A stretch of 59,406 bases of DNA from Escherichia phage ECO103 4-12-1, in the sequence record OR844651; one strand, given 5' to 3'. Below the pieces are notes generated by a model. It was not told where the DNA came from. It ran no database searches and worked only from the letters and a program-made list of their open reading frames with translations. Below, piece after piece: positions 40,190 through 41,342 of the stretch. Position numbers and translations under genes: made by a program. The first letter of the stretch is position 1; each line of letters opens with the position of its first letter.

Positions 40190-40249
40190 TTTTGACCTCT
40201 TTTTGCTGTTTATAACAAATAAATTATAGCGGGATTCAGGGTAAGACGT

Positions 40250-40265
40250 ATAACAAATTTGTTAT
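40250..40265. promoter_or_regulatory. perfect 16-bp palindrome ATAACAAATTTGTTAT upstream of XRE-HTH gene (candidate operator)
   Basis: read directly; half-site TTATAACAAAT repeated at 40210-40220; TATAAT-like hexamer on minus strand nearby. Confidence 0.5.
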
Positions 40266-40298
40266 TGAAACGCAAGAAAACGGCCAAAACGGGCAAAA

Positions 40299-40578
40299 GG
40301 TTACATACCATTTTCGCCGTTTGTAACCATGTTCAGGCCAGTGGTGGCGCGGCTCTCAGCGATCCGGGTATTCAGGTTACAAACCGAAGTGGTTTAGCGC
40401 CCGGGTAAAATTCCCCCCTATATAAAATTCACATTTTTACCTCGTTTTCTCTATTTCTGGACTATTACTATACTTTATTTGTAACTTGTAACTTTATAGG
40501 AGAAAAACGCAGTAAAAACAGTGAGATAGTCAGAGGTTACAAAGCGAAAAACTTGTAACCCGTCTGTAACTTGTAACC
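40299..40578. repeat. cluster of ~10 TTGTAAC(C)/GGTTACA(A) heptamer-octamer sites in both orientations flanking an AT-rich stretch
   Basis: copies at 40299, 40321, 40375, 40479, 40486, 40536, 40553, 40565, 40571; AT-rich 40420-40500. Confidence 0.7.
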
Positions 40579-40790
40579 TGATACTGCTGCCGTGGGCTTG
40601 GTCAGCACCCGCCCACCGGGTAAAACCGTAATACAATCAACCGATTGCGGGGCTAAAGCGCCGTTCCGCCCGCACCCCCGTCACCGCCGCGATTTGGAGC
40701 CTCCCTACGGGAGAAATTCGGTTTTTCGGCTAAGTTATTGATTTCGCAAAGCGGGGCTATGGCAGATCCGGCCCATTTTCCGAGAAAGCG

Positions 40791-40802
40791 GCTCTGCGCA
40801 CC
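40791..40802. other. candidate cohesive-end (cos) site
   Basis: gctctgcgcacc is the reverse complement of GGTGCGCAGAGC, which I recall (unverified) as the 12-nt 5' cohesive end of phage Chi; lies in a 1.1-kb non-coding region flanked by repeats. Confidence 0.35.
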
Positions 40803-41040
40803 CCCGGGCCGACCGACAGCCGGGTAAGTACCTTTTTGAAATCGTGACCGTAATTCTTCGCCAGCCGTCCGCCACGCCACGCAAGCTAGATCGTAATAGG
40901 TAGTCATACCTTACACCACGATCGCCCCGTCTGCACCCCGTAGCGGTCGAAATAAGGGCATACAATAACGCCCCGTCACACCATATAACAGGGGATACCA
41001 TAGAAAGGGGAATAGATAGCCATATACAGCCGCACACCAA

Positions 41041-41240
41041 CGCACGCCGCGTATACCATGCAGCACCATAGCGGGCCGCCATACGGCATAGCGCACATAT
41101 AAGGCCGCATTGATGCACGTCGTGTATATCAGGAAGGAAGAAAGCAGGACGGGCCGCCATACGCACGCCGCGTATATCAACTACAACGGCACACCATAGG
41201 CCCGATACACGGCACCGCAACGCACGCCGCGTATATCAGA
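41041..41240 (+). repeat. four direct copies of the promoter-spacer element CGCACG(C/T)CG(C/T)GTATA without matching -35/-10
   Basis: copies near 41041, 41114, 41163, 41221. Confidence 0.7.
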
Positions 41241-41246
41241 AAGGCA

Positions 41247-41277
41247 ATAAAAAAGCCGCCCGGATAGGCGGCCTTTG
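41247..41277 (-). terminator. intrinsic terminator ending the minus-strand early operon
   Basis: minus strand GCCGCC-TATCCG-GGCGGC followed by TTTTTTAT. Confidence 0.6.
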
Positions 41278-41342
41278 ATACATGGGGAATATGTCAAAAC
41301 AGGTTAAAAGGGATCGTGCGGCGTTCCCCGAAAATCCGGGAT

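Follow-up and report, generated by a model that had tools for sequence, protein, structure and literature searches.

A putative iteron origin that co-varies with its primase-helicase beside the known cohesive-end site of a Chi-like Escherichia phage

In bacteriophage Chi, GGTGCGCAGAGC has been identified by primer extension as the 5′ single-stranded extension of the genome (Hendrix et al. 2015, PMC4342425), the same cohesive end was obtained by run-off sequencing in phage Utah (Leavitt et al. 2017, PMC5374247), and the genomic termini of phage Siskin were confirmed according to the abstract of its report. The Chi and Utah announcements map these ends and describe no cosB, integration host factor (IHF) sites, iterons or right-end repeats (PMC4342425, PMC5374247), and we found no description of a replication origin for the family Casjensviridae in the searchable literature. 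Here we analyse a 1.1-kb interval (40200-41340) of Escherichia phage ECO103 4-12-1 (OR844651; 59,406 nucleotides, the whole of which is called the window below), in which an earlier note, made from the letters alone, had placed a candidate cos site between two families of repeats. A sequence search matched the interval to >100 Chi-like phage records at 90-100% identity, including SAL_R1 (97.5%) and Chi (94.4%; both Chivirus, Casjensviridae), and the window appears to be a complete, circularly permuted Chivirus genome with cos internal. With a probability of roughly 0.75, we read the interval as a composite control region of a Chi-like phage, made of separable modules: cos, a replication origin, an operator of the small helix-turn-helix (HTH) gene gp1, and a set of right-end repeats. 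What would be new is the origin of Casjensviridae, for which an initiator and two candidate specificity residues can be named from comparative evidence.

The cos site in the window is real, but it is published knowledge and not new. When the published cohesive ends of Chi-like phages were compared with the window, the 12-mer gctctgcgcacc, which occurs once in the genome, proved identical to the ends mapped in Chi and Utah; the earlier note had proposed it as the reverse complement of the Chi cohesive end, and was right about both the site and the sequence (PMC4342425, PMC5374247). Base 1 of the Utah record, which is annotated 'cohesive ends', corresponds to window position 40802, and many other records, among them those of Chi, Siskin, Smarc6 and Enc34, also start or end exactly at the cos base of the window. 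Compared with Chi and Chi-like phages, the overhang is identical, the region is 94-98% identical and the site lies in the same place, downstream of the last right-arm gene and ~600 bp before gp1, with no essential difference beyond the circular permutation of the window; the position of cos thus identifies the deposit as circularly permuted, and tells where the record should be opened. TerL carries lambda gpA-type domains (GpA_ATPase, E=3e-65; GpA_nuclease, E=7e-60) and TerS matches PHROG 141 and DUF1441. A lambda gpA-type terminase would make 12-nt 5′ cohesive ends at the following site:

40791-40802, unstranded: cosN overhang gctctgcgcacc, reverse complement of the published 5′ cohesive end GGTGCGCAGAGC.

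To the left of cos lies a set of short repeats that is best explained, on comparative grounds, as an iteron replication origin bound by the primase-helicase gp2, and not as terminase sites. The earlier note had reported about ten TTGTAAC(C) sites around an AT-rich stretch; the sites are indeed present in both orientations, and their count comes to nine TGTAAC cores within 40300-40577, compared with a background of 0.07 per 420 nt. Exact matches to TTGTAAC number 11 in the genome, of which seven fall within 40321-40577 and the other four are scattered. Measured over 90 bp, GC content is lowest in the entire genome at 40419-40508 (24.4%, compared with 56.5% overall), a segment that overlaps the stretch between the two groups of cores. 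The elements concerned are as follows:

37276..39861, + strand: gp2 primase-helicase, the proposed origin-binding initiator, with Prim-Pol, PriCT_2, superfamily 3 (SF3) helicase (DUF5906), a C-terminal winged helix (residues ~744-815) and an acidic tail.
40300..40382: distal iteron cluster, TGTAAC cores at 40300(-), 40322(+) and 40376(-), with positions and orientations conserved in other genera.
40405..40478, unstranded: AT-rich stretch, the proposed DNA unwinding element, overlapping the genome GC minimum.
40480..40577: proximal iteron cluster, TGTAAC cores at 40480(+), 40487(+), 40536(-), 40554(+), 40565(+) and 40572(+).

The arrangement of these cores is conserved more widely than their sequence. 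Relative to cos they stand at -491(-), -469(+), -415(-), -311(+), -304(+), -255(-), -237(+), -226(+) and -219(+), and identical offsets and orientations were found in Seifer (~70% identity), in Enc34, where the motif is TGTAAT, and in PatoteraRojo, where it is TGTTAC. The same layout therefore runs from Chivirus to Yonseivirus, Enchivirus and Redjacvirus, with the motif switching as a set between TGTAAC, TGTTAC and TGTAAT, and the intervening stretch keeps its AT-rich character in all genera compared, though not its sequence. Switches also occur within Chivirus: Adana, BCPSty002 and FSL SP-030 each have eight TGTTAC sites and at most one remaining TGTAAC (eight and one, respectively, in BCPSty002), and the iterons of SPN19 are TGTAAT.

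Whole-genome comparison of the window with BCPSty002 shows what is exchanged along with the motif. The two phages are 99-100% identical over 33400-37300, a block that includes the small protein gp3; identity drops at the first gp2 codons (37276) to 58-80% through gp2 (58-70% at its 3′ end), gp1 and the iterons are unalignable, and identity is back to 94-97% at ~40600, so that the exchanged segment ends shortly beyond 40577, where the last iteron stops. TerS and TerL, in contrast, are 99.5% and 99.4% identical between the same two phages. To the left of cos, then, we see a repeated motif far above chance, an adjoining AT-rich element and, as set out below, co-variation of the motif with the predicted DNA-binding part of the initiator and not with TerS or TerL, all of which are features looked for in an origin.

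A residue scan of the last 270 residues of gp2 in 14 sequences of known iteron class (262 gap-free columns, 158 of them variable) found only two columns, 802 and 804, that separate the classes. At position 802 the TGTTAC phages have L and the other two classes have V; at position 804 the TGTAAT phages have C, where K is otherwise the general residue. Sorted by wing, genomes with L802 have 7-10 TGTTAC sites, those with V802 and K804 have 5-9 TGTAAC sites, and those with V802 and C804 have 6-10 TGTAAT sites, on a background of ~0.07. The two residues are predicted to lie two positions apart on wing strand b2, and the wing falls within the confidently modelled part of the predicted winged helix. 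When the wing is excluded from the comparison, the nearest relative of every switched allele belongs to another class, which implies four separate V/L changes and three separate K/C changes (seven independent switches). We also called the motif blind, from the wing sequence alone, for three previously unexamined metagenomic homologues, and fetched their contigs only afterwards. All three calls were right: GVLCFN predicted TGTAAT (6/7 class-assignable sites), GLLKFE predicted TGTTAC (10/10) and GVLKFG predicted TGTAAC (5/8). Homologues were sought with the full-length protein, since its C-terminal domain as sole query retrieved just two relatives. More divergent wings go with other motifs: GVFSYD with AACTGT(A/T)AC, that of PSTCR9 with a CTTAC type and that of Inception with TGTACAAA.

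Several observations weigh against this reading of gp2 and its iterons. The gp2 gene and the iterons are adjacent, and part of their association is linkage; the consistency of single columns across lineages argues against linkage alone, without proving contact. Some arrays are mixed, with seven TGTAAC and three TGTAAT sites in sal3, and sites in numbers of 5, 2 and 1 in the P0016 contig, so that specificity falls short of absolute. No origin signal is seen in the cumulative GC skew, whose minimum (53252) lies far from both cos and the iterons. Finally, everything beyond cosN, where the evidence is identity to mapped ends, rests on comparative inference from conservation, motif switching, co-variation and fold prediction, and to this class belong the binding and unwinding steps as well as the roles proposed for the gp1 dyad and the right-end repeats. 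The TGTAAT sites of sal3 all lie in its cos-proximal cluster; its iteron zone looks like a recombinant of TGTAAC-type and SPN19-type origins, and the mixture suggests that gp2 may tolerate some mixing at iteron base 6.

Three other explanations of the TTGTAAC sites deserve consideration, the first of which accepts gp2 as their binder. Bacteriophage P4 alpha binds both ori and the distant crr, and the iterons could likewise be an auxiliary element (a crr-like enhancer, a copy-control or handcuffing site, or an autoregulatory site) with initiation taking place elsewhere; co-variation shows recognition and not initiation, and the lack of a skew signal at the iterons fits such a role. We consider this improbable, because TGTAAC clusters nowhere else in the genome (the four remaining TTGTAAC matches being scattered), the iterons flank the most AT-rich segment of the genome, and paired clusters around an AT tract are conserved across genera. 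More improbable still is that the sites are operators of gp1 or of another transcription factor, controlling early transcription and not replication. Although gp1 adjoins the iterons and encodes an HTH, and short repeat arrays in both orientations can be regulator sites, the full iteron architecture also occurs in genomes that have no gp1 gene (Enc34, PatoteraRojo, SPN19 and three metagenomic contigs), TGTAAC is found alongside three different gp1 alleles, and gp1 has an allele-specific dyad of its own. Scarcely credible, lastly, is that the sites are cosB-type TerS sites which, helped by an IHF-induced bend in the AT-rich DNA, bring terminase to cosN in the manner of lambda: they are multiple, short and near bendable AT-rich DNA and, as lambda cosB does, lie on the side of cosN that belongs to the left end and faces the terminase genes, but TerS is 99.5% identical in BCPSty002 although eight of the nine sites there are TGTTAC, the sites lie 219-491 bp from cosN with a separate, invariant block of IHF-consensus and GCGGGGCTA sequences nearer to it, and the motif class follows two residues of gp2. 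Two individual candidates for the iteron binder were rejected, gp1 on its distribution, as the architecture persists without it, and gp3 because it shows no co-variation.

The earlier note had left open whether the TTGTAAC sites resembled a lambda cosB with IHF sites or an origin. Of these alternatives the origin is favoured, as the motif tracks gp2, while cosB is not, as both terminase proteins stay ~99.5% identical despite the switch; the sequences that do resemble lambda cosB (IHF consensus with repeated GCGGGGCTA), which the earlier note had not mentioned, lie at 40635-40759, nearer to cosN than the TTGTAAC sites.

Under the origin reading, the C-terminal winged helix of gp2 would dock on the iterons through its beta-hairpin wing, with residue 802 paired to iteron base 4 and residue 804 to base 6. 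The two iteron clusters would load SF3 helicase rings on both sides of the AT-rich stretch, which would then melt, and the Prim-Pol domain of gp2 would prime synthesis. At even odds, in our estimation, the wing holds a two-residue code (base 4 read as A by V802 and as T by L802; base 6 read as C by K804 and as T by C804), through which the specificity of the origin has changed on at least seven independent occasions in Casjensviridae, sometimes between phages that are otherwise 92-100% identical. Such repeated change points to selection for replicons that stay orthogonal to those of co-infecting relatives, and the code, if true, amounts to a directly engineerable specificity switch. Beyond the winged helix, the tail of gp2 (39826-39861) is conserved and acidic, reading DPFDDEDEV in the window and EWDDEV in other alleles, and resembles by analogy the tails through which replication proteins contact polymerase or SSB.

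Nearer to cosN, joined ends were aligned from Chivirus, Enchivirus (Enc34), Yonseivirus (Seifer), Redjacvirus (PatoteraRojo, Stilesk, PSTCR9), Lavrentievavirus (Inception) and a Yersinia phage, and a block from about -160 to +50 around cosN (about 40635-40841) is conserved in all of them. Its elements, and the sequence to its right, are:

40635..40655, + strand: IHF-consensus match AATCAACCGATTG abutting GCGGGGCTA repeat 1, cosB-like and conserved across genera.
40701..40713, unstranded: dyad or hairpin CTCCC-TAC-GGGAG with an invariant CTACG centre, identified by co-variation.
40731..40743, - strand: second IHF-consensus match, cosB-like, from a consensus scan and conserved across genera.
40751..40759, unstranded: GCGGGGCTA repeat 2, cosB-like and conserved across genera.
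40826..40841, unstranded: conserved block AAGTACCTTTTTGAAA in a cosQ-like position on the right-end side of cosN, nearly invariant in the genera compared there.
40860..40975, unstranded: further conserved non-coding right-end sequence, e.g. CATACCTTACACCACGATCGCCCCGTCT, without coding periodicity.

The IHF consensus WATCAANNNNTTR has four matches genome-wide, two of which fall in the 125-bp span 40635-40759 left of cosN, and the only two copies of GCGGGGCTA in the whole genome lie in the same span. Between these two repeats stands the dyad (4-5 bp), whose stem changes are compensatory across genera, with double changes TCCC/GGGA, CCCC/GGGG, GCCC/GGGC, TACC/GGTA, CACC/GGTG and TAGC/GCTA; 89% of cells are paired, four of the five pairs have changed on both sides, and none of 500 shuffles reached the observed score. 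By position and composition, the core 40635-40841 is likely the best candidate for equivalents of cosB and cosQ. A point against so assigning it is that the GCGGGGCTA and IHF elements are invariant among the genera compared, which places their assignment to TerS and IHF beyond a test by co-variation.

Among related records, two permuted ones are short by 3 nt within the 12-base cos (BCPSty002, GCTCTGCGC---CCC; PSTCR9, CGCG---CTCCGCAC); these gaps are probably assembly artefacts at the cohesive-end junction and not true variants. A scan of IMG/VR with a cos 14-mer returned 120 loci, nearly all chance matches and only four of them Chi-like. In a distant relative (a 61,024-bp Logan contig from SRR21291468), AGTCCACGCACC and not GCTCTGCGCACC stands at the cos position, ~680 nt after the primase stop, and the contig retains TGTAAC-type iterons and the AAGTACCTTTTTGAAA block; this combination of a different cohesive end with the same origin type indicates that cos and ori vary independently.

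On the far side of the iterons from cos, gp1 and its upstream palindrome form a further module:

39902..40189, - strand: gp1, small XRE-family HTH protein (Pfam HTH_37/HTH_3; PHROG 2339).
40250-40265 and 40212-40219, unstranded: operator-like dyad ATAACAAATTTGTTAT and half-site ATAACAAA, upstream of the gp1 start codon.

gp1 is optional and multi-allelic, with at least four alleles in Chivirus and none in Enc34, PatoteraRojo or SPN19. The palindromic operator that the earlier note had placed at 40250-40265 is there as a perfect 16-bp palindrome, ATAACAAATTTGTTAT, 61-76 nt upstream of the gp1 ATG, and an operator role is plausible, since the dyad changes with each gp1 allele: ATAACAAATTTGTTAT goes with the allele shared by the window, Chi and Utah, while at the equivalent position Adana and FSL SP-030 have ATAACTT...AAGTTAT and ECO111, PK4 and YSD1 have ATACGCCGCGTAT. 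The half-site ATAACAAA occurs five times in the genome, where 1.2 copies are expected, and three of the five fall in this stretch. The dyad region 40212-40265 is thus probably, judging by this allele-specific pattern, an autoregulatory operator of gp1. A strict sigma-70 scan of 39700-41700 found no promoter, which leaves that of gp1 undefined. A near-perfect palindrome, ATACGCCGCGTAT / TACACGTCGCGTAT, takes the place of ATAACAAATTTGTTAT in ECO111, PK4 and YSD1 (gp1 allele B; ~530 nt left of cos) and also in SPN19. Its likeness to the core of the promoter-spacer element described next hints that one regulator may recognise both.

Right of cos, the interval carries copies of that promoter-spacer element:

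41040..41238, + strand: four copies of ACGCACGCCGCGTATATCA, starting at 41040, 41113, 41161 and 41220 with 1, 3, 0 and 0 mismatches.

The earlier note had described these as promoter-less, and they are present, conserved and devoid of a -35 TTG or any -10 hexamer. Exact copies of ACGCACGCCGCGTATATCA, for which chance expectation is 0.02, occur on the - strand at 43329 and 46106 within promoter-like contexts (TTGACG-N17-TTATAT/TTACAT). In every Chivirus checked the four copies hold constant offsets from cos of +252, +325, +373 and +432, and variants of ACGCACGCCGCGTATATCA are found near +250 and at +350 to +370 in Enc34 and PatoteraRojo; the repeat core is a near-dyad, ACGC-C-GCGT. We regard the right-end repeats as probable regulator-binding sites. 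It is possible, though less likely, that they are instead decayed duplicates of right-arm promoters without present function: they lack the -35 TTG and any -10 hexamer, one has three mismatches and all lie beyond the right-arm terminator, but all four keep identical offsets in every Chivirus examined, related copies persist in Enchivirus and Redjacvirus despite diverged surroundings, and the four copies in Adana share one variant (TATACCA). A concerted change of the cos-proximal and promoter 19-mer copies was sought in Adana as a route to the binder; the sets differ, the two promoter copies carrying TATATAA, and no co-varying partner was found there. The two right-arm promoter-like sites themselves (43270-43365 and 46050-46140, - strand; TTGACG-N17-TTATAT/TTACAT) have an identical 17-nt spacer and a near-identical downstream leader, TTAAATTCCCTTCGGGGG(C/A)CGGGGCAA, holding a small hairpin; the likeness suggests that two right-arm transcription units share a regulator and a 5′ RNA element.

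The earlier note's view that 40200-41340 has no credible open reading frame (ORF) holds, in that the largest candidates show no coding signature and a Pfam search of the ORFs of the region gave no match. An 84-aa ORF that crosses cos (40907..40653, - strand), carried in the Utah record only as a misc_feature, was rejected as a gene: its variable sites number 15/10/13 at the three codon positions, a stop codon interrupts the frame in both Adana and sal3, and in Providencia phages the frame is closed. Counted by phase, variable sites are evenly spread on either side of cos, with 25/27/32 to the right and 13/12/15 to the left, compared with 14/7/5 in a neighbouring real gene. In SAL_R1 (PP504835), the closest relative, six 'hypothetical protein' coding sequences are annotated within the cos/ori region (locus 511-1598); these are probably over-annotation, because the region shows a conservation pattern without a coding signal. 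Two terminators were identified:

39870..39890, unstranded: stem-loop terminator between the convergent gp2 and gp1, from a terminator scan and kept in relatives.
41245..41275, - strand: intrinsic terminator closing the right-arm operon, GGCCGCC-loop-GGCGGC followed by U6.

The second of these has a minimum free energy of -17.7 kcal/mol in a 65-nt fold (z -2.5), and an Rfam scan gave only sub-threshold matches, mostly over the two terminator hairpins. Chi-like sequence was also seen inside oddly named records, namely Staphylococcus phage SA1 (GU169904, 17.3-18.7 kb), several 'Enterococcus', 'Listeria' and 'Staphylococcus' phage contigs and Serratia phage KpYy 1 41, where its assignment to unrelated hosts is most likely contamination or mis-assignment.

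Together these modules provide a control-region map for Casjensviridae, flagellotropic phages that are studied for the control of Salmonella, Klebsiella and Cronobacter. Telling origin and packaging sequences apart matters for the construction of cosmids, phagemids and minimal replicons from this family, and an exchange of initiator-origin modules would explain the mosaic hot spot at the left genome end.

Compared with known systems, the packaging part of the region is most readily set beside lambda, in which cos consists of cosQ, cosN and cosB, with the IHF site I1 and the gpNu1 R sites. The two share a 12-nt 5′ overhang, a gpA-family TerL and IHF-consensus matches interleaved with a short repeated motif on the left-end side of cosN. 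They differ in that the repeat here is GCGGGGCTA, a candidate site present in two direct copies ~104 bp apart, and in that TerS belongs to DUF1441/PHROG 141, with no Nu1 family among its Pfam, NCBIfam and PHROG matches. The terminase genes of Chi-like phages, moreover, lie ~10 kb from cos (PMC4342425), as they do here, whereas those of lambda adjoin it.

The proposed origin has likenesses to several systems at once. As with the lambdoid O protein and ori, initiator and iterons move between close relatives as a single unit of specificity. Lambda has its iterons within the O gene and uses the helicase of its host, whereas here the iterons are intergenic and the initiator brings its own helicase and primase. 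The SF3 origins of SV40 and papillomavirus share with it sites of 5-7 bp in closely spaced pairs beside an AT tract, and the ori of P4 shares short iterons in both orientations. With P4 alpha, gp2 has in common the combination of primase, SF3 helicase and C-terminal winged helix in one polypeptide (PMC2777425); it differs in that its primase is an archaeo-eukaryotic Prim-Pol and not of the DnaG type, that the iteron sequence is distinct, and that the genome has no second, crr-like cluster. Against TIGR01613 (P4-family primase) gp2 scored 32 bits, below the cutoff of 108.7, and fold searches with its C-terminal domain did not recover the P4 alpha origin-binding domain (1KA8), nor did Foldseek find anything significant in the PDB. 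By analogy, gp2 may work like the P4 alpha-type initiators, but it is no demonstrable member of the P4 family.

In domain order (Prim-Pol, SF3 helicase, winged helix) gp2 equals ORF904 of pRN1, a plasmid of an archaeal host and in that respect different. The essential non-coding origin region of pRN1 lies directly downstream of the ORF904 gene (PMC2777425, PMC4234260), the same relation between replication gene and origin that we propose for gp2, and the proposed logic of gp2 would parallel that put forward for ORF904 and P4 alpha (PMC2777425, PMC4234260). The cognate binding site of ORF904 was not identified in PMC2777425; for gp2, in contrast, both the candidate sites and the residues that may read them can be named.

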